A DNA stretch of 44,735 nt from a phage: sequence record PZ166175.1. One strand, 5' to 3'. A program made the position numbers and the translations under genes. The notes beneath the pieces were generated by a model. That model saw only the letters and a list, made by a program, of their open reading frames with translations. It searched no databases and was not told where the DNA came from. Each line of letters begins with the position of its first letter. Positions within the stretch are counted from its first letter, which is position 1. Below are positions 3,215 through 44,042 of this stretch, in pieces.

Positions 3215-3276
3215 TTGTTGGTAATGTCATTATATGCCATTCGTGTCAGATGCTTTTAGCTATTCGTGCTATTTTT
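3215..3276 (-). promoter_or_regulatory. early promoter cassette (palindrome + 22 bp + TATAAT)
   Basis: minus sense: AAATAGCACGAATAGCTAAA, 22-nt spacer, TATAAT. Confidence 0.5.
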
Positions 3277-5990: not shown

Positions 5991-6287
5991 GTTGATACCT
6001 CGTTTCGTTTACTTCGTTTCAGTGATTGCCATCTTGCCACTTGTTTACGTGTCGGTCAACGTATTTTTATGTCTATTCCATCGCGTATACGTTTTTTCGG
6101 CCTTCAAGGTAGCGTCAGCACTGGTTGTAAACGCGCCGTATCCCCTGTATACCGTTTTTGAGGGTACTTTCCTATATATGTGCCTTTTTATTCCTACAAT
6201 GTCATCCCTTTCCTACAAGTGTCAGAATATCTGCGCGGAACATATCAATTATCTCACCAATGATCGGTATACACAGTATACATATAT

Positions 6288-6308
6288 ATAATAATAATAA
6301 TAATAATA
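6288..6308. repeat. (ATA)7 microsatellite inside a block shared with 24125..24187
   Basis: ataataataataataataata read directly; paralogous block has (ATA)5. Confidence 0.8.
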
Positions 6309-6519
6309 AAGTAAAATGTTGATATATATAGATATTATATTGTATATCGTGTGTATATCTCGCGTAAAAACGTAGGTTAGTGTTCGCTAACTTTTGTGAC
6401 GACACTGAGTATACATGGGTTACGCGTATGCGAAAAATGGCCCGGCAAGAATAAAAATCAACTTGTATGGTAGTCCTTCAATCCTTCATTCACTCACCCA
6501 CCACTTCATTTCACTTTTC

Positions 6520-6616: not shown

Positions 6617-6691
6617 CGAATAGCACTTTTTGCTAAAGACATTAGGGTCTGGTGGGGCTATAGTTAACTCACCAACAGCGAGGGTGTAGAT
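6617..6691 (+). promoter_or_regulatory. early promoter cassette (plus orientation)
   Basis: AATAGCACTTTTTGCTAAAG, 23 nt, TATAGT, then RBS and ATG at 6692. Confidence 0.5.
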
Positions 6692-13741: not shown

Positions 13742-13938
13742 CTCACAATCTCCACATCCAATTTTGAAACACTAACAACAATACCCGCATCGTTTTTAAC
13801 GATGTATCTATCTGAGTCTGCGGAAATTTCAAGAACAAAATAGCTACTCCCGCGCTTCAGAAGGTACTCATCAATATCCATCCGTGTGGTGTTGTTTCTT
13901 GGCTTAAACGTAACAACGAACGGTCTATTATTAATCAT
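13738..13938 (-). CDS. hypothetical protein (66 aa)
   Basis: ORF track; overlapping start/stop with neighbours. Confidence 0.45.
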   Translation of the reverse strand: MINNRPFVVTFKPRNNTTRMDIDEYLLKRGSSYFVLEISADSDRYIVKNDAGIVVSVSKLDVEIVR

Positions 13939-14255
13939 TCAAAATCCTCCGGGCAATCTTTCTTCATTTCTTCGACAGGAGGAAATACCTCCCATTTTCC
14001 GACACCCTCCCATACACCGTAATGGCATCGCTCAGCTATGAATGTTCGTCCAAAAAATTCATAGTTAGCCCAGAATAGACGAAACCAGTTTTGCATTTTA
14101 ATGCCGTGAACTTTTCCCAACACTTGGTAATACCTCGCCATACTTGCCGCCTCTACGGCAGGGAATATTAACCAGAGCCAAATCAACAAAAGCATAGCGA
14201 CCGCAATTATTGAGTTAAAAAATACCCCGCTCCAATAGATATATGTGTCAATCAT
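13935..14255 (-). CDS. hypothetical membrane protein
   Basis: ORF track 13935..14273; hydrophobic segment IIAVAMLLLIWLWLIFPAV; C-terminus EEMKKDCPEDFE duplicated in the next gene. Confidence 0.45.
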   Translation of the reverse strand: MIDTYIYWSGVFFNSIIAVAMLLLIWLWLIFPAVEAASMARYYQVLGKVHGIKMQNWFRLFWANYEFFGRTFIAERCHYGVWEGVGKWEVFPPVEEMKKDCPEDFE

Positions 14256-14470
14256 AAAAAATCCTTCGGGCAATCTTTCTTCATTTCTTCAATGTCAGCA
14301 ACCATGCGGTCGCGCCATGTTTCAATATCAGTGTTCAAGTAGTCTTCCTCAAAACTCATATCTAGGCAAAATGCTAAGTCCCAAGGGTTTTTGTTATATC
14401 CAGATTTCTTTAGCTCCTGAACCGCCATTAGCTTAAAAACTTCCCATTGCTTGTCAAAGGTTAATTTCAT
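14252..14470 (-). CDS. hypothetical protein (72 aa) sharing its C-terminal 12 residues with 13935..14255
   Basis: ORF track; C-terminus EEMKKDCPKDFL. Confidence 0.45.
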   Translation of the reverse strand: MKLTFDKQWEVFKLMAVQELKKSGYNKNPWDLAFCLDMSFEEDYLNTDIETWRDRMVADIEEMKKDCPKDFL

Positions 14471-14673: not shown

Positions 14674-14689
14674 TTTCTTTCTCTCTTTG

Positions 14690-14757
14690 TGTTTCGTTTC
14701 GATGGAGTAACTATATCGCATCCATGCGAAATCCCTTTAGCAATTCGTGCTATTTTG
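14690..14757 (-). promoter_or_regulatory. early promoter cassette
   Basis: minus sense: AAATAGCACGAATTGCTAAAG, 22 nt, TATAGT, TACTCCATCGAAAC. Confidence 0.5.
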
Positions 14758-15168
14758 AAATCATTTCTTTGAATGCCGCAAGAAAACCTTCGCGCCCGTA
14801 GGCCACAGCAGAGAAACCTCCTGATTCTCTGACGCTTTTAAGGAATGACTTCTGTTCTGAACTGACTGGACTTGCCTGCGCCTTCCCAGCCCTCTTTAGC
14901 TCTATTGCGCCAAATGGATACCTCCCTCGCAAAGATTCTGGTATTAGGAATAAGCAGTCTGACACCCCCTTAAGCAAACCCTTAGCTGCATCCTTCCTTG
15001 CTGACCCAATTGATTTCATACCTTCATTAACTGTGTGCCAGTAAACAATCTGCGGATAATGATACTTAACCCAATCAGAGCAAAATATCTGTTCGTCGTC
15101 TTCCTTTGGGCATGACTTTACAGCGCCCGGGTAAAACTCAATGTAATCCTCTTTATCTGTAATCTTCA
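14750..15168 (-). CDS. VRR-NUC-like PD-(D/E)XK nuclease (putative)
   Basis: ORF track 14750..15202; start moved to MKITDK... after GGAGG; D...ELK motif; adjacent to helicase. Confidence 0.45.
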
Positions 15169-18825: not shown

Positions 18826-21231
18826 ATGGCAATTTATGACTTAGGAACAGCATCACTAGCTGCAAATGGCGAGGTGACTGGAGTCGGTACGACATGGAAA
18901 GCACCACTCACTCTAATTCGAGTTGGTGCAACTATTGTATTTAAAACTGAGCCAGTTAAGATTTATACTATCTCTGAAATTATCAGCGACACTCAGATTA
19001 ATGTTTATAACCCTAATTCTGAAACTGTTCCTGCTGGGACTGGTTACGCGATTCTTGCTCACGATGGAATTACAGTTCAGGGGTTGGCTCAGGATGTTGC
19101 AGAAACCCTTCGTTACTATCAGTCGCGTGAAACAGAAGTTGCAGATGCTGTTGATGCATTTAACAATTTTGACTCTGCTGATTTTAAATCAAAGGTAACG
19201 CAGGTAAACACGCAGTACGGTGATGTTGTTACGATTGCAGAACAGGTAAACACGAAGTACGGTGATATTGTTACGATTGCAGAACAGGTTTCAAGTGATG
19301 CATCATCATCACAAATTAACGCCACCAATGCATCATCTTCCGCCGATAGAGCACAAGCAGCGGCAAACTCCGTGTCTGGATCATTAACTTTAAACTTCTC
19401 AGATGGAGGAACGGTAGAGTCTAAAAATCAGCAGGTTTTATACATCAATGGAAGTGATGTTAAGTCTTATGTCTGGACTGGGTCATTCCCGAAGACGATT
19501 CCAGCTGGCTCAACCCCAGATAGCGCAGGTGGTGTTGGTGCTTACTCATGGGTCAAGATTTATGACTCAAACCTGTTTGATTACGATGGTTTAAGTTCAA
19601 TCGGTAAGGTTAAATCAGTTTCAGAGTTATCTTGTTTGTCAGGTGAGATTGGTATTACTACGATTGAGCTAGAGTCTTATGTGGCTGGATTCAACCTAGG
19701 CGGTGGTACTCTTATCGCGTCAGATGCATCACTTCAGGTTAATAATGTAACTGTTTTTTCAGGGGACGGCGTCACATGGAGCCGTAAACTTAACGGTAGA
19801 AGAGCAACAGTATATGATGCTGGTTACACTGGTGATGGTGATATAGCTGCGGCAATAAACTCAGTAAACATGGCTGGCCTTGACTGCGTTGTTCCTGTAG
19901 ATGGCCTTGTGCAATCACAGATAAACATCGACGTATCAAGAGGTTCATTGATAGGCGAGAACAAGTGCAATATTAAAGAGTCCCCTGGTGCTGTTGGTGA
20001 ATATTTCGTAAACATATTCAACTCAAATACTGATTATGTTGATAGAGACTCGATATCATCAACATCATTGATATCTGGGATTTCATTTACTGGCCTTGGA
20101 GCACGCAAGTTCTGTGTAGGTGGATCAACATCAGGTGAGACTGGCGAATTAAGAATCGAGAACTGCGGAATCATATCAACTGGTGGAATTGAGTTCTTAG
20201 ACAACTCATATAGGATTCTTTTTGATAAGTGCGCAATAAGCAGGAGTTTTAATGAGACAATAACTTTTAGGTCGAGAGCTAACTCTGGTGAAGTTATGAA
20301 GTTTAATCACTGCTGGATTGTAGATAACGGAGGCCCAATCACCTTTGAGAATGGTCAGTTTATTTTTGATTCATGCTCGTTACCGGCAGGTAAAAAGAGT
20401 GGCTATTTTGACCCCACAGTAAGTCTGCACGATAACGCGACGGTAGTTTTCTCAAATGGAAATATAGAGTATCAGCCAGGTCAGAACTTCGTATCATTCC
20501 TGGTCACGGGAAGTTCGAGATTAAGCATAAAAGACACCACCATTCTTGTTCCGGATGGTTTTACGTCTGTTCCAATCGTAAGTAATGATGATGGCGTTGT
20601 AATCTTGAATAATTGTTCGCTTCCTCTATACGGAAGTACCACAATTGCTTCTGGTTTCCAAGCAAGGCAAGTTGTCGGCGGGTCTAGTAAAAAGGTTATC
20701 GCGAGAGGGTGCTTTCCGAGGGCTGGATTCCCTGTTAGTGATTGGAGCAAGGGATCAATTGTTAGCCCTTACATTAACAGCTTAAGCAATGGCAGCGGAC
20801 AGTTTCAGAATACTTCCAACTGGTCACTGTCGCAAACTTCTTCTGGATCGGTTACTGCCTCTATTGTCTCGCAGGTGCCCACAGGTATAACTGCTCAGTT
20901 TGATAGGTCATTCCTTTTGAATGTACCTGACTTAAACTCATCAGCGAACTTTACCACTAATGCTTATGATTGCGAGCCGGGTAGATACTTCCAGTTCGGA
21001 TTTTGGGCCATGAACACAACAAAAACATTAGCAAGTATTAGATTTTTAGATATTTCTGGTAATGCTGTTGAGGAATCTGTAGGTTACTACATACCGAAAG
21101 GTGGTATCTTCTCTTTTTACGCTCTTATATCAACGGTTCCCCAGGGTGCATATAGAGCCGAGATAAACTTTAACGTAGGACCATCCACTGGCTACCTTAT
21201 GTTACACAATGTTATTTATGGATTGATTTAA
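18826..21231 (+). CDS. tail fiber protein (putative)
   Basis: ORF track 18796..21231, start moved to MAIYDLGTASLA...; long Ser/Thr/Gly/Asn-rich protein; internal tandem duplication. Confidence 0.6.
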   Translation: MAIYDLGTASLAANGEVTGVGTTWKAPLTLIRVGATIVFKTEPVKIYTISEIISDTQINVYNPNSETVPAGTGYAILAHDGITVQGLAQDVAETLRYYQSRETEVADAVDAFNNFDSADFKSKVTQVNTQYGDVVTIAEQVNTKYGDIVTIAEQVSSDASSSQINATNASSSADRAQAAANSVSGSLTLNFSDGGTVESKNQQVLYINGSDVKSYVWTGSFPKTIPAGSTPDSAGGVGAYSWVKIYDSNLFDYDGLSSIGKVKSVSELSCLSGEIGITTIELESYVAGFNLGGGTLIASDASLQVNNVTVFSGDGVTWSRKLNGRRATVYDAGYTGDGDIAAAINSVNMAGLDCVVPVDGLVQSQINIDVSRGSLIGENKCNIKESPGAVGEYFVNIFNSNTDYVDRDSISSTSLISGISFTGLGARKFCVGGSTSGETGELRIENCGIISTGGIEFLDNSYRILFDKCAISRSFNETITFRSRANSGEVMKFNHCWIVDNGGPITFENGQFIFDSCSLPAGKKSGYFDPTVSLHDNATVVFSNGNIEYQPGQNFVSFLVTGSSRLSIKDTTILVPDGFTSVPIVSNDDGVVILNNCSLPLYGSTTIASGFQARQVVGGSSKKVIARGCFPRAGFPVSDWSKGSIVSPYINSLSNGSGQFQNTSNWSLSQTSSGSVTASIVSQVPTGITAQFDRSFLLNVPDLNSSANFTTNAYDCEPGRYFQFGFWAMNTTKTLASIRFLDISGNAVEESVGYYIPKGGIFSFYALISTVPQGAYRAEINFNVGPSTGYLMLHNVIYGLI
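19201..19284 (+). repeat. 42-bp tandem duplication (x2) inside the tail fiber gene
   Basis: caggtaaacacgcagtacggtgatgttgttacgattgcagaa repeated with 2 mismatches; encodes QVNTQYGDVVTIAE / QVNTKYGDIVTIAE. Confidence 0.85.
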
Positions 21232-21720: not shown

Positions 21721-22371
21721 TTAAAATGTGTCGATTTGTTGTGATTCTACTTCAATCCTTTCTTCAGGATTACTTTTTTCTGCGACTTTCTTTGGTGTTG
21801 CTGGGTTGAAGCCAGTTGCTGCGTTTGCTTCGATTTCTGCCTTTCGCGCGATAATGTGTGGTTCAAAAACCTTCCATCCTGCCGCATCGAGAGATTGCTT
21901 TGCCTCCTTCCATACGTTACGAAGCTCATCAAGAGTGTTGCACTTCTCAAGTTCTCGTTTGAAGTCTTTAACACCTTTGGCTGCAAGATTGCCATCGTCA
22001 TCTGCCTGGCTAAGCCCTAATGCTGCCGTGATGCCGTAACGTCTTGCGTATGTTAAAGCCGAGCCGTAACCTTGTGCATCATTCTTGCTGATTGGGACAA
22101 TCATTAAGAAGCTAACCCATTCTCCAGATTCTGCATGAAACAGCTTTGTCTCAACCTTCATGCGGTTTGTTTGATCATCATCCAGGACGCTCTGGAACAT
22201 AACCAAACCGCACTCATCAAGTCCTGGCTCAACGGCCGCCAATACGTCTTCTAGGGTGGCGTATTTGTTCTTGAGGTGCGAGTTCTGCTTTGACTTTTCA
22301 GCCTTCGCAAATAGCGATTTAGCAGTGTGCAGCGCGTTTAAAATTGATTTGCATGACTCTGAAATTTGCAT
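21721..22371 (-). CDS. ERF-family single-strand annealing protein (putative)
   Basis: motif GSALTYARRYG; flanked by SSB and exonuclease genes. Confidence 0.55.
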   Translation of the reverse strand: MQISESCKSILNALHTAKSLFAKAEKSKQNSHLKNKYATLEDVLAAVEPGLDECGLVMFQSVLDDDQTNRMKVETKLFHAESGEWVSFLMIVPISKNDAQGYGSALTYARRYGITAALGLSQADDDGNLAAKGVKDFKRELEKCNTLDELRNVWKEAKQSLDAAGWKVFEPHIIARKAEIEANAATGFNPATPKKVAEKSNPEERIEVESQQIDTF

Positions 22372-22584: not shown

Positions 22585-22665
22585 TGCTAACCTCGCTCGT
22601 TGTTGATTGGGTAATCATACCACAACTTTTAATTTCGTCTTTAGCAATTCGTGCTATTTATATTT
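22585..22665 (-). promoter_or_regulatory. early promoter cassette
   Basis: minus sense: AAATAGCACGAATTGCTAAAG, 22 nt, TATGAT, TACCCAATC. Confidence 0.5.
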
Positions 22666-23623
22666 CTTTATATTGTTTTAATGCCCACTCAGGAACAAAT
22701 AGCTCTTGCTCTGTAATGCCATTAGAGTACCCTGGCCAGATATCTAGCTCCTTACACTTCTTGTAAGTAGCCAGCGCCTCAAGATACTGAAGACGGCCGA
22801 TTCTTAGCTGTTCGTCAGTTAGGGTGTACAGCATTGGTAAGTATGGCTCCACCTTCTCCTGTGCCAGCAACCCTACAGCAACCTTGCGCTTCTCGTTGAA
22901 TGCTTTCACAAACAGATCTCTCTGAAGAGCCATTTTTGCAAGGTATCCGTGCGAGAATGCCGATTTACCGAATCCTTCCGGGCTTGCGTCTGCGGTCGTT
23001 TTGTAATCTGTCAGCTTGACTATGCCATCAACAACGTCAACGTGGTCAATTCGAATCTTCACGCCGACACCAAGAATCTCACCGAATATTGATAGCTCTT
23101 TTTGTGCTGTCTCACTATTCACGATTGCATTATATGCAGGTATATTGCAAAGAACCTCACGCATAGCCACAACTTTATCGTAGTCAGCGGCACTAACTAG
23201 CTCCTTACCCTCCACAAGCGCTTGAGCGCTCTCCTGCTGCTCAATTAGCCATTTAACAGGCCAATCCTCACCAGAACGGTACATCATCTCCACGAGCTCG
23301 CTATAGCCCTTCCCGGACGTGCCGGCTACGCCAACTTTTTTAAGTGCTGACGATAATCCGGCCTGGCTTGTAATTAATCCTTCAATCGTGTCAAGGTCTG
23401 TTGCTCGCAAATATTCCCTATCAAATACGTCTTGCTCAAGAATCATGCAGTGGCTAAGGGTTCCAAACTTAAGCGCCTTGCTATCATTGTTTCGCTGCTT
23501 AAACTTCCACTTAGCTGGGGATCCCTGGATAATCTCGACAAGTGAGGAGCCAGAGATGTGATCAGTTTCAGCGTGATAAGCCTCGTTACTTAGCTCCTCT
23601 CGCGTAAAAACTTTAAAGCTCAT
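22658..23623 (-). CDS. PD-(D/E)XK recombination exonuclease (putative)
   Basis: 321-aa ORF; motif IDHVDVVDGIVKLTDYKT; paired with ERF and SSB. Confidence 0.5.
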   Translation of the reverse strand: MSFKVFTREELSNEAYHAETDHISGSSLVEIIQGSPAKWKFKQRNNDSKALKFGTLSHCMILEQDVFDREYLRATDLDTIEGLITSQAGLSSALKKVGVAGTSGKGYSELVEMMYRSGEDWPVKWLIEQQESAQALVEGKELVSAADYDKVVAMREVLCNIPAYNAIVNSETAQKELSIFGEILGVGVKIRIDHVDVVDGIVKLTDYKTTADASPEGFGKSAFSHGYLAKMALQRDLFVKAFNEKRKVAVGLLAQEKVEPYLPMLYTLTDEQLRIGRLQYLEALATYKKCKELDIWPGYSNGITEQELFVPEWALKQYKEI

Positions 23624-23900: not shown

Positions 23901-24143
23901 ATCGTTGACTTAAGTTTACGTGTTAATACCTTGTAATTCCGCGTAGGCATTGCCACTAGTTACGTTTCTTGGCATCTCAGCCCAGCTATAGCTCAATGTA
24001 ACCATCGTGTATATCGTGTATACCGTTTCTTGCAGAGGTGCATTGGTATAGCTGTCACGCAATACTGTATAAATCAACATGATATTGAAATTATAACCGG
24101 AACACTCTATAGAAGTAGTTACATGATATACACAGTAATATAT

Positions 24144-24158
24144 ATAATAATAATAATA
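24144..24158. repeat. (ATA)5 microsatellite inside the block paralogous to 6267..6337
   Basis: ataataataataata read directly. Confidence 0.8.
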
Positions 24159-24283
24159 AGAGTAAAAGGTTGATATATATAGATATTTTAATGTAACCAA
24201 TGCGTAACTAGGCGTAACAGGGCGTATATCATTTTTCGCGGATTAGATTGCATACATCGAGTTACATCGGTTACGTGTATGCA

Positions 24284-30325: not shown

Positions 30326-30383
30326 TTTATCTCCAATAAAAAAGGCCAATCTCTCGATTGACCCAGTTTAACACTAATTTCGT

Positions 30384-30815: not shown

Positions 30816-31565
30816 CTGGTTTGCTTTAGCCTGAAGGCTTGCTGCTGCGCATCCACCAAATGAAATCTGATTATTCTCACCAAATCTAAGCTTGCAGCTA
30901 TTTACCGTTCCGGCGCAGAAGTCTAATGAAGGGTCTGATACTGGGTTATCATCCTTGTCAAAGTAACGATTACCAGCGTAGTCGCAACCATTCCCGCTAC
31001 GATACCAGCCACGTGAAGCCCAATAGCAAACAGACTGAACAAGTCTCGCCGGGATATAAATGCCATCCATATCCATCGGGCTACTAAGCTCAAATGATGC
31101 CGTCTTGTAATCAACCTGCCTAGGTCGCTCAATGAAGTAAACAAATCGGCGATAGTCCCCATCAGCAATACTTCCGTCTTCATTAATATTATCGCGCGTA
31201 GTAATCCAGATTGTAACCTTAGCCTTAACCAATCCATTGTAAGTACGTATAAGTGCGCTAATGCGCTGGTCTACGTTTGATACTGTTAGCGTTACTTTGT
31301 TGGCCTTCCCGTCAGAAGTCATATTGATGCCCGATATACCGAAAGGTCTAGGACCATACTCTTCACCGCGAAATGTAATAGTCTTCTCTGGTAGTGGCTC
31401 CCCATTCATTTGAGCCATCATAATCTCTTCTGGCGTGTATGAAATGTTCTCATTGTGGAAGTTGTAAACGAGACTTCCGAAGGAGGTTCCGTCAACCTGG
31501 ATTAGTGTCACAATCTCGCCAGGGAAAAGGCTTTGCAACTGATTTTCAAACTTTGAACTTAACAT
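30810..31565 (-). CDS. minor tail protein (lambda gpL-like)
   Basis: ORF track 30810..31577, start moved to MLSSKF... after TTGGAGAAA; C-terminal Cys cluster. Confidence 0.6.
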   Translation of the reverse strand: MLSSKFENQLQSLFPGEIVTLIQVDGTSFGSLVYNFHNENISYTPEEIMMAQMNGEPLPEKTITFRGEEYGPRPFGISGINMTSDGKANKVTLTVSNVDQRISALIRTYNGLVKAKVTIWITTRDNINEDGSIADGDYRRFVYFIERPRQVDYKTASFELSSPMDMDGIYIPARLVQSVCYWASRGWYRSGNGCDYAGNRYFDKDDNPVSDPSLDFCAGTVNSCKLRFGENNQISFGGCAAASLQAKANQS

Positions 31566-31577
31566 ATATTTCTCCAA

Positions 31578-31599
31578 TAAAAAAGCCCCTAATGGGGCT
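31578..31599 (-). terminator. terminator-like hairpin between gpM-like and gpL-like genes
   Basis: AGCCCC-atta-GGGGCT followed by TTTTTTATT in minus sense. Confidence 0.5.
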
Positions 31600-31603
31600 T
31601 AGT

Positions 31604-31954
31604 TTAACGCATTGAGCTAAAAACTTCTACGAATTGCATGCTCACAGTCTGAACTTCCTTGCTGAGCGGAGTGACGCTAATGCTATCCTGCTGAATCACG
31701 AACATGGATGTATCACCCTGCGGAGTTGTCCAGAAGAATGGAGTAATGATGTGGTTGAAGCAAAAAACCATCACATCTCTCCAGTCCTTGTTAGTGTATG
31801 TCATCTGGTAGCTTCTAGTGTTACTACGATATCCACCCGTACCCCTTTGGGTGTAACCATTGCCGAAGCTAACAATTCGCACGTTGTTCGTATTACTGAA
31901 TGAAGCTGAGCCACCCTGTATTTGAGTACACCAGTTGAAAGTATCAATAGCCAT
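31604..31954 (-). CDS. minor tail protein (lambda gpM-like)
   Basis: 116-aa ORF directly downstream of tape measure gene. Confidence 0.55.
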   Translation of the reverse strand: MAIDTFNWCTQIQGGSASFSNTNNVRIVSFGNGYTQRGTGGYRSNTRSYQMTYTNKDWRDVMVFCFNHIITPFFWTTPQGDTSMFVIQQDSISVTPLSKEVQTVSMQFVEVFSSMR

Positions 31955-42761: not shown

Positions 42762-43986
42762 TAATTGTCACCTCTGTTTCTACTGAACCGTCACTAATCT
42801 TAACCTCTGGAGCGATTGTGCGCAATGTGTCTCTTGCCTCATCAATATCCATAGCGCCAGCTGCAATTAGTGTCGCAATGCTGTTTACGTTCTTCTCAAG
42901 AATCTCGGCCTTATCCTTACTTGATTCCTGCGCTAGGGGATAAAACTCAACTGACCATTCGTCAACGTTAACAATGAACGGGATTAGGAACTCAAGAATA
43001 GGAAGCAGTTCAGAGTTACGCTTGCGGTCAATTAGCTTGTGGAATGTCTCCAGCGCTGTATTCTGGCTTGAGGATACGCCGCCAACGTTCTTATTCTTCA
43101 GGATAATCTCATGAATACCGCTCAGCGCAACAATTCTGTCAAACTTCTTATCCAGGAACGCATCAATCCCGCCAATATCAGAGTTTAGAATGCTATACTC
43201 TTCAGATTCCGCGTCAATGCCAATCGCCTGACCAACGCCGCTATTGTTGTCAACCTGCGCAAGTCGTAATCTTGCAGCGCCAAACCCTTCGCTATCATCA
43301 CACAACTCAGCCAAGCCTTTCGCTTTCCACACTGCTTGCTGCTTTCGTCTCAGTAGTTGGGTAGCGAGTCTTTCGCAGTTGGTGTAATCCTTGATTGAGT
43401 CAAGAATATCACTGGATAGAACGCTTCGGCCCCAGCCATCATTCTGCCGACGCATTGCGTTAGGAATTCGCTCTCCGCCAATGATGTGAATTCTGCTGTA
43501 GTGTACATCATAGAACATATCGCTCTCATCAGTGGTGATTCGATAGGTTAGTGGCTTGCCAAAACGTGCGTTGCGGGGATTCTCTTCGCGAGTTTGTACT
43601 TTTACTTGAGTACGGTCGTAAACGCGAACGGTTTCAAGCTCAGCACCTTCTCTGACCGGACTTGTTAGCGCCCTATTGTCCTTAACGATAGCTACAATTG
43701 CAGCCCCACCGAATAATCTAGCCCACGACCATGCGTCGTTAATATTCTGCGTCATTTCTAGGTCATCCCAGCGAGACCAGAATGCAGGCTCATCATCAAT
43801 ACCATCAATGTGGAATCCTGCCGCTAATGCTGTCTCAGGGATTGTGTCGATAATTCTACGCACTATGGCATTATTTGCATAAAGCGAACCCAGAATTGTA
43901 GGTTCCTGATTCTGTAAGCTCCCGTAAATCTCACTACCATCACTGTCGCCGAGAAATATATTGGCGTAGCTGTCTGTCTTGACCAT
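42718..43986 (-). CDS. portal protein
   Basis: ORF track 42718..43998 (TTG); start moved to MVKTDSY... after GGAGAAAAAC; size and position after TerL. Confidence 0.65.
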   Translation of the reverse strand: MVKTDSYANIFLGDSDGSEIYGSLQNQEPTILGSLYANNAIVRRIIDTIPETALAAGFHIDGIDDEPAFWSRWDDLEMTQNINDAWSWARLFGGAAIVAIVKDNRALTSPVREGAELETVRVYDRTQVKVQTREENPRNARFGKPLTYRITTDESDMFYDVHYSRIHIIGGERIPNAMRRQNDGWGRSVLSSDILDSIKDYTNCERLATQLLRRKQQAVWKAKGLAELCDDSEGFGAARLRLAQVDNNSGVGQAIGIDAESEEYSILNSDIGGIDAFLDKKFDRIVALSGIHEIILKNKNVGGVSSSQNTALETFHKLIDRKRNSELLPILEFLIPFIVNVDEWSVEFYPLAQESSKDKAEILEKNVNSIATLIAAGAMDIDEARDTLRTIAPEVKISDGSVETEVTISETSNDPLEVPTDN

Positions 43987-43997
43987 GTTTTTCTCCA

Positions 43998-44021
43998 ATA
44001 AAAAAGCCCCATGTAGGGGCT
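43998..44021 (-). terminator. rho-independent terminator between the inserted gene and portal
   Basis: AGCCCC-atgta-GGGGCT followed by TTTTTTATT in minus sense. Confidence 0.55.
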
Positions 44022-44042
44022 AGTTTATCACACGGCTTTTAA

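Follow-up and report, generated by a model that had tools for sequence, protein, structure and literature searches.

A doubled gene junction around a grafted membrane-protein gene in an Rtp-like coliphage: a probable recombination scar and shared crossover site

Why two consecutive phage genes of unrelated descent should end in the same amino acids is the question raised by one locus of the phage record PZ166175.1, analysed here as a window of 44,735 nt in which all genes at the junction lie on the minus strand. A repeat search identified a single direct repeat at this locus, 41 nt long, with 38/41 positions identical (93%) and a start-to-start spacing of 317 (Table 1). The initial annotation had described 33 nt with one mismatch, and this core was recovered on renewed search at 13941-13973 and 14258-14290, the sole mismatch being C at 13949 and T at 14266; the second copy starts at 14258 and not at 14257 as first given, and the core is part of the full 41-nt unit. 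With three or fewer mismatches allowed, the core matches two sites only in the 44.7-kb window and none in 100 dinucleotide-preserving shuffles, and a window-wide survey found no near-identical repeat at any gene junction other than this pair. BLASTP of the two proteins finds only the tail in common, with 10/12 residues identical, which bears out the earlier description of neighbouring, otherwise unrelated genes that end alike.

On the coding strand, both copies of the repeat unit, here called R, read GAAGAAATGAAGAAAGATTGCCCG[G/A]AGGATTTT-NN-ATGATT. The unit encodes 11 shared codons, EEMKKDCP[E/K]DF, and one variable final codon, after which a TGA stop overlaps the ATG of the next gene (ATGA) and is followed by the codon ATT. 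Within the tail, the Glu-Asp codons GAGGAT make a GGAGGA ribosome-binding site 6 nt ahead of that ATG. Because the repeat runs on through the next ATG and ATT, it is 8 nt longer than first reported and includes the downstream start; since it carries tail codons, a ribosome-binding site and a stop/start overlap, R amounts to an entire gene junction, of which the shared C-terminus is only a part. The longest perfect block between the two copies of the window is 24 nt. Four folds of R gave z-scores of +1.3 to -0.8, RNA structure thus being no better than in shuffles, and no enzyme dedicated to R was found in the window. In the window and in the numbered loci of relatives (L001-L057), the genes that occupy the slot after R (rtp57-like, gp17-like and X, the gene between the two copies) nearly all begin ATGATT (Met-Ile) directly after it; the exceptions are rtp57 of Sd1 (ATGACT), gp17 of RobRod40 (ATGATC) and the rtp58-like and 55-aa genes (ATGAAA). 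The 6 nt by which the repeat extends into the next gene may belong to the shared junction itself or reflect a favoured start context.

Table 1. Features of the window at and around the doubled junction, with the putative recombination genes (positions are those of the whole window)
Feature	Position	Strand	Remarks
Promoter-like intergenic motif copy	14686..14762	-	Head of the small-gene operon rtp55, rtp56, X, gp17; putative function
rtp55-like gene, 67 aa	14470..14673	-	Starts MATIYTGK; upstream of rtp56 in the same operon
rtp56-like gene, 72 aa	14252..14470	-	PHROG 2676, no function assigned; small all-helical protein; 96.6% identity to L050 in the body
R copy 2 (native position)	14250..14290	-	Last 12 codons of the rtp56-like gene (EEMKKDCPKDFL); AAGGA ribosome-binding site, TGA/ATG overlap, X codons 1-2 (ATGATT)
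X, 106 aa	13935..14255	-	PHROG 2531; chimera of Kagunavirus-type residues 1 to ~94 and the rtp56 tail
Foreign body of X between the R copies	13974..14249	-	96.7% identical to metagenomic L004, ~70% to Kagunavirus-type genes
R copy 1 (duplicated position)	13933..13973	-	Grafted last 12 codons of X (EEMKKDCPEDFE); GGAGGA 6 nt before ATG, TGA/ATG overlap, gp17-like codons 1-2 (ATGATT)
gp17-like gene, 66 aa	13738..13938	-	phiEB49 gp17 family, PHROG 29417; 97.9% identical to T145P1
rtp58-like gene, 41 aa	13616..13741	-	Conserved right-hand border of the variable slot
ERF-family single-strand annealing protein	21721..22371	-	PF04404, 96.9 bits (cut-off 25)
PDDEXK-type nuclease (DUF3799)	22658..23623	-	PF12684, 75.7 bits (cut-off 26)

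The window comes from an Rtp/T1-like coliphage (Drexlerviridae, Braunvirinae-like), and the region is 82-87% identical to that of ACG-M12, Rtp, EC3a, the Piccard phages and others. Its local gene order is helicase, VRR-NUC nuclease, promoter-like spacer, rtp55-like, rtp56-like, X, phiEB49-gp17-like, rtp58-like and rtp59-like; in ACG-M12, T145P1, Jk06, SU57, G8 and RobRod40, gp17 comes directly after rtp56. In PHROG, the 41-aa rtp58-like protein is weakly similar (E = 2e-4) to the entry 'Kil protein for bacterial septation inhibition' and also matches its own family, in which function is unassigned. A second variable slot lies at the helicase/VRR-NUC junction: it is empty in the window, where the two genes overlap, and holds an HNH_3 endonuclease gene in L052 (1172-1657) and a 77-aa gene in L004 (1863-2096), L039 (551-784) and L056 (1149-1382).

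Several further elements of the window were recorded. At the place equivalent to the promoter-like spacer, the SU57 record annotates a predicted promoter. The conserved intergenic motif TTTAGCAATTCGTGCTATTTA (reverse complement TAAATAGCACGAATTGCTAAA) has at least 12 sites in the window and is ~77 nt long at four of them; it lies in the + orientation at 3248, 3947, 4500, 5327, 14729, 18778, 22633, 30785 and 44492 and in the opposite orientation at 6619, 7449 and 24283, and probably serves the phage as a promoter or regulatory signal of its own. The spacer between rtp57 and rtp58 in relatives (AATAGCACTTTTTGTTAAAAC) is a copy of the same motif, and the window is without that spacer. An AT-rich stretch of ~85 nt with (ATA)n runs occurs twice, 17.85 kb apart (6261-6344 and 24120-24195, 75-91% identical), and the pair may mark divergent-promoter or origin-type regions. 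Repeated terminator-like elements (AAAAAAGCCCC...GGGGC) with conserved flanks lie at 30326-30350, 31563-31611 and 43984-44032. A 42-nt tandem duplication in perfect register, 95% identical and amounting to a 14-residue repeat, lies at 19201-19284 in an 811-aa open reading frame with a tail-spike N-terminal domain (a receptor-binding-type protein).

To which of the two genes does the shared ending belong? X starts at the ATG at 14255 (MIDTYIYW..., 106 aa) and not at an upstream TTG. In its product a single segment is strongly hydrophobic (residues ~8-34, with Kyte-Doolittle values of up to 2.7), and the AlphaFold model, with a mean pLDDT of 68, consists of a confident long N-terminal helix and is weak elsewhere; given this segment and helix, the label 'membrane protein' that the gene had received at the outset is reasonable. 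X has no Pfam match, and PHROG 2531 carries no known function. By tblastn, homologs of X occur in more than 500 phage records, from Kagunavirus, Dhillonvirus, Klebsiella, Salmonella and other siphophages, the best of them 66-71% identical, and their alignments stop at X residues 91-100. The PHROG 2531 profile likewise ends at residue 92; the native homologs end ...FPAEAENEPRN or ...FPAEVE, directly before their stop, and lack the R tail; the DNA homology between the window and a Kagunavirus-type gene spans ATGATTGAC exactly to GTATTTCCT and none is found beyond; and residues 96-106 of X are predicted to be disordered (pLDDT <50). No isolated Rtp-like phage with X was present in the collection; KMB36 was considered as one and rejected, being a Kagunavirus.

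The opposite holds for rtp56. In 25 of 25 distinct relatives examined, R terminates this gene, the PHROG 2676 profile reaches its last residue with the R tail included, and in the model of the protein (pLDDT 90) the tail forms the end of the last helix, an ordered C-terminus. That model matched nothing in the PDB, and its BFVD matches were uncharacterised phage proteins only; among them, the homolog of phage DTL (A0A2H4PGR5) is annotated with 121 aa against the usual 72-75 aa, which may reflect a mis-called start, a fusion or a record-end effect. Over 300 pairs from the 25 distinct relatives, the mean conservation of R is 90.6%, against 60-73% for the rtp56 body. Given that the same nucleotides encode the end of the rtp56 helix, a ribosome-binding site and a stop/start overlap, this triple coding accounts for the conservation and a special role need not be invoked. 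A search for other genes with the R tail, in which the full rtp56 protein was the query, returned only family members of 72-75 aa; this query missed even known proteins in which X carries the tail, and is blind to tail-only matches. Native to rtp56, R is of foreign origin in X, the direction of the graft being from rtp56 to X.

Relatives of the window display three states of this locus: no X and one R (state 0), X with its own stop and one R (state 1), and X fused to R, with two copies of R (state 2, written X::R). State 0 is found in ~110 Rtp-like isolates, in which the flanks of the window match as two pieces spanning ~410 bp compared with 727 bp; its junctions were read directly in at least 20 loci. 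R is followed by rtp57 in Rtp, Sd1, the Piccard phages, phiA2-1 and L050, by gp17 and then rtp57 in ACG-M12, T145P1, Jk06, SU57 and RobRod40, by gp17 alone in G8, by rtp58 directly in EC3a and IME542, and by a 55-aa gene in L052-L055, so that at least five kinds of gene (rtp57, gp17, rtp58, X and the 55-aa gene) stand directly after R. The presence or absence of X in relatives is thus as the initial annotation had anticipated: the isolates of state 0 join the genes that flank X in the window, or other pairs, by a single R. These empty sites fit a locus that never had X and a locus that lost it equally well.

State 1 was found on two contigs, L039 and L057, and has the order rtp56, R, X with its own stop, the spacer that normally comes after rtp57, and rtp58. 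The last two codons of X, its stop and the downstream sequence (GTTGAATAGCACTTTTTG; L039 1975-2000, L057 2775-2800) are those of the rtp57 3' end, indicating that X has there replaced the body of rtp57 and is itself a small chimera. Relatives with both genes and no shared segment, which the initial annotation had named as evidence against a recombination scar, therefore exist; they look like an intermediate state and the idea stands. State 2, with the order rtp56, R, X::R and next gene, is that of the window (then gp17) and of L004, L005 and L056 (then rtp57); the second copy of R is present in all four phages in which X is followed by another slot gene. A single R in the isolates without X and a doubled R in the X::R phages agree with the scar around a gained gene that had been proposed. 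Directly ahead of the tail, each of the four X::R genes has different codons, encoding PPV, PPA, PPNT and PPET.

One of the four X::R genes departs from the others in its reading frame. In L056 (Logan SRR18691217 contig, 45.5 kb; 2740-2830), X::R carries two frameshifts, one from an additional G within a G-run and the other from an additional A within an A8 run; as a result, X ends early (...WEGGREMGGISTRDK, then a stop) and the tail is untranslated, while the ribosome-binding site and start of rtp57 are intact. As the L056 protein is identical on three contigs, the frameshifts are probably real. The dN/dS of native X genes is 0.05-0.13, indicative of strong purifying selection; within the X::R clade it is 0.41 from few sequences, reaching 0.88 in the closest pair, where changes are very few, and these higher values would be compatible with relaxed constraint.

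It could be supposed that the shared C-terminus is a functional peptide module, such as a binding or localisation tag, that was selected on two unrelated proteins, given that the tail is almost invariant in rtp56 and that three of the four X::R genes keep it in frame. However, this is very improbable for several reasons: first, the identity extends to synonymous sites and to the stop, the start and the next codon, which points to copying and not to convergence. Second, the tail has lost its frame in L056, on all three contigs, and is absent from the state-1 proteins and all native X proteins; where X does carry it, it is the disordered part of the prediction.

Doubling of R was also searched for outside the X::R phages. 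Among 138 matching phage records, phiJLA23 alone had two places for R (L038, NC_047740.1, ~31.9-32.1 kb). This candidate for a second natural doubling was rejected: it is a 196-bp tandem duplication with Ns and single-base differences, extending from the 3' end of rtp56 into the 5' end of rtp57, and most likely reflects an error of sequencing or assembly in the deposited sequence. Pattern scans returned 8 loci in IMG/VR and 22 in metagenomes, none with a doubled R; of the latter, the 18 inspected were chance matches to the degenerate pattern.

Direct repeats that flank an inserted segment may also arise as the target-site duplication of a transposable or homing element, or by faulty assembly. 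The probability of either is negligible here. The 317-bp segment consists of X only, with no transposase, homing endonuclease or terminal inverted repeats, and in L039 and L057 X stands at the same site without a duplication. As for assembly, the same architecture recurs in four independent and diverged assemblies (84-97% identity), and a repeat of 41 nt is not long enough to mislead an assembler.

Considered together, we think it likely that the repeat is a recombination scar and a shared crossover site, X having been grafted by unequal recombination and the resulting cassette exchanged since. X, native to Kagunavirus-type siphophages, would have entered the variable slot downstream of R, its own start ATGATTGAC providing 6 nt of microhomology with the ATGATT start of the resident slot genes. 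The duplication would then have arisen by an unequal, in-frame crossover in which the end of X was joined just upstream of R in a second genome. A candidate for this join is GTC-GAA in X against ATC-GAA-GAA in rtp56: the GTC-GAA|GAA-ATG of the window fits a cross between a state-1-like ...GTC-GAA-TAG and an rtp56 ...ATC-GAA-GAA-ATG, with 5 nt in common. Such a join would have given X a tail of 11-12 residues and a stop while leaving the next gene translationally coupled, with its ribosome-binding site in place. Since the four X::R genes vary in the codons ahead of the tail, the crossover can be placed only approximately, and there may have been more than one event. The initial annotation had suggested gain by homologous recombination or a duplication scar; it is proposed here that homologous recombination served the later spread only, and that the first gain and the duplication occurred by non-homologous or microhomology joins.

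This raises the question of whether state 1 preceded state 2 at all. In the tree, the state-1 clade is supported at 97% and the X::R clade at 65%, and the branching relative to the Kagunavirus genes at 24-38%; with the deep nodes of the tree unsupported, the order from state 1 to state 2 is tentative. An alternative is that X was copied into the rtp56/rtp57 junction in one step by replication template switching (copy choice), which left the donor at ATGATT and returned just upstream of R, so that R was doubled on acquisition and state 1 would be separate or secondary. Consistent with this, state-1 genes are placed neither as ancestors nor as sisters of the X::R clade, both groups are equally distant from the Kagunavirus genes (dS >1), and state-1 X ends GTTGAATAGCAC..., which is the rtp57 3' end, making state 1 a distinct replacement in itself. 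However, the GTC-GAA before the tail of the window's X matches the rtp57-type GTC-GAA-TAG of the state-1 genes, which fits descent from a state-1-like gene. This match is limited to the window and, one base off, L004, and does not separate the two routes decisively; the one-step route is considered unlikely.

Whichever bases were joined, the segments on either side of the two R copies do not share one history. The rtp56 body of the window is closest to that of L050 (96.6%), a relative with flanks of 80-84% and no X. The window's X is closest to that of L004, at about 96.5-96.7%, while the rtp56 body of L004 is only 74% identical, its VRR-NUC gene 83%, and the genes downstream are unrelated. 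For gp17 the closest relative is T145P1 (97.9%), which has an rtp56 body of 77% and no X. Segments of 96.6-97.9% identity thus stand in backgrounds of otherwise 74-85%, and three neighbouring segments with different closest relatives indicate three different histories. The switches of closest relative coincide with the two copies of R; in the comparison with L004, the identity profile climbs to 93-100% at R copy 2 and falls away immediately beyond the ATGATT of R copy 1.

On the preferred reading, a recombination scar that since serves as a crossover site, the X::R cassette would have been swapped among diverged Rtp-like backbones, and set before different genes, by crossovers in R. Since R is the best conserved stretch of the region, its two copies would act as portable homology. 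The Erf/nuclease system of the phage would probably be the executor of this exchange, Erf being the likely recombinase on short homologies such as R and the PDDEXK nuclease its likely exonuclease partner. Published work finds an Erf/Exo pair to equal lambda Red in efficiency when the substrates are diverged, quotes a minimum of ~30 bp for Red-beta, and counts short conserved sequences at the flanks among the ways in which mosaics arise (PMC3945230, PMC2327257). Judged from the repeat itself, recombination between the two copies of R could plausibly excise X cleanly and yield the arrangement of T145P1, ACG-M12 and G8, a deletion to which the initial annotation had also pointed; with a perfect block shorter than the length quoted for Red-beta, such deletion may be rare.

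It may be asked whether R has in addition been selected as a cassette handle for the swapping of accessory genes, with an effect like that of integron attC sites or the PeSL cassettes of T4-type phages. The evidence in its favour is that R precedes at least five different genes, that it is the most conserved stretch beside a hypervariable slot, that cassette exchange bounded by R is visible and that the phage encodes Erf. Nevertheless, the conservation of R is already accounted for by its triple coding; a second copy occurs with one gene family only, X, among ~140 phage records and 96 protein clusters; R has neither structure nor a dedicated enzyme; and selection for evolvability, which would be difficult to demonstrate, need not be assumed. 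A selected handle is for these reasons held to be quite improbable. A bolder form of the idea, with still longer odds, is that Rtp-like phages fuse R to an incoming gene and so make a self-contained cassette between identical handles that Erf could, in any relative, insert before any slot gene or excise; were this so, R handles would constitute an enzyme-light, integron-like system for accessory genes in virulent phages.

The probable scar at R can be set beside the known modes of phage mosaicism. Illegitimate recombination followed by selection, the Hendrix/Juhala model, is the prevalent hypothesis (PMC2327257). As in that model, a gene from another group was joined near gene boundaries with few shared bases, here ATGATT on the 5' side and ~5 nt on the 3' side, and the survivors are in-frame and expressible; the R locus differs in that its 3' join lies within coding sequence, that 41 nt are duplicated, that the C-terminus is chimeric and that a plausible intermediate is kept in other phages. 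The modular theory, as represented by ref. 9 in PMC2327257, invokes homologous exchange via short conserved linkers, with lambdoid examples. R resembles such linkers in that it flanks interchangeable genes, at a conservation of 90.6% against ~73% for the gene body, and has discordant relatives on its sides; unlike them, it is not intergenic and consists of a coding 3' end and the initiation region of the next gene, and it is found in virulent T1/Rtp-like phages and twice in one genome. The third mode is relaxed homologous recombination by the Rad52-like phage recombinases Red-beta, Erf and RecT (PMC3945230, PMC2327257). The window encodes an Erf-family protein and a nuclease, and its patches of 96-98% in a background of 74-85% are like those described for lambdoid phages; compared with those papers, the homology that R would offer is 33-41 nt, with a median of 16-21 nt for the perfect blocks, which does not exceed the lengths tested there.

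X also invites comparison with morons, given that it is inserted between two genes, rtp56 and gp17, that are adjacent in relatives. Unlike a moron, it has no promoter or terminator of its own, matches to such signals being at chance (promoter-like 6 against 6.6, terminator-like 2 against 1.8), and it is coupled at both ends by ATGA overlaps within the small-gene operon of a virulent phage, not carried as a prophage-expressed unit. A PeSL consists of an early promoter and a stem-loop. In T4-type phages, such regulatory cassettes were reportedly seen by Arbiol et al. in 2010 to flank shuffled accessory genes. Like a PeSL, R is a repeated short expression signal that borders mobile accessory genes; unlike one, it has no stem-loop, its fold being at the level of shuffles, and its promoter matches are at chance.

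In summary, the R locus adds one more case to a known class of events, as a clear instance of ordinary gene-by-gene shuffling, and is not a new kind of element. For annotation, it carries the warning that a common C-terminus is here no sign of a common function. Models of phage mosaicism have mostly been argued from finished products, whereas this locus keeps the apparent steps side by side, from the empty site through X with its own stop to X fused to a doubled junction, with near-identical cassettes in diverged backbones. It illustrates how a non-homologous join may create a chimeric tail and by the same act supply the homology for the spread of the gene. A 317-bp deletion between 41-nt repeats would, furthermore, provide a simple test system for short-homology recombination of the Erf type in a virulent phage.
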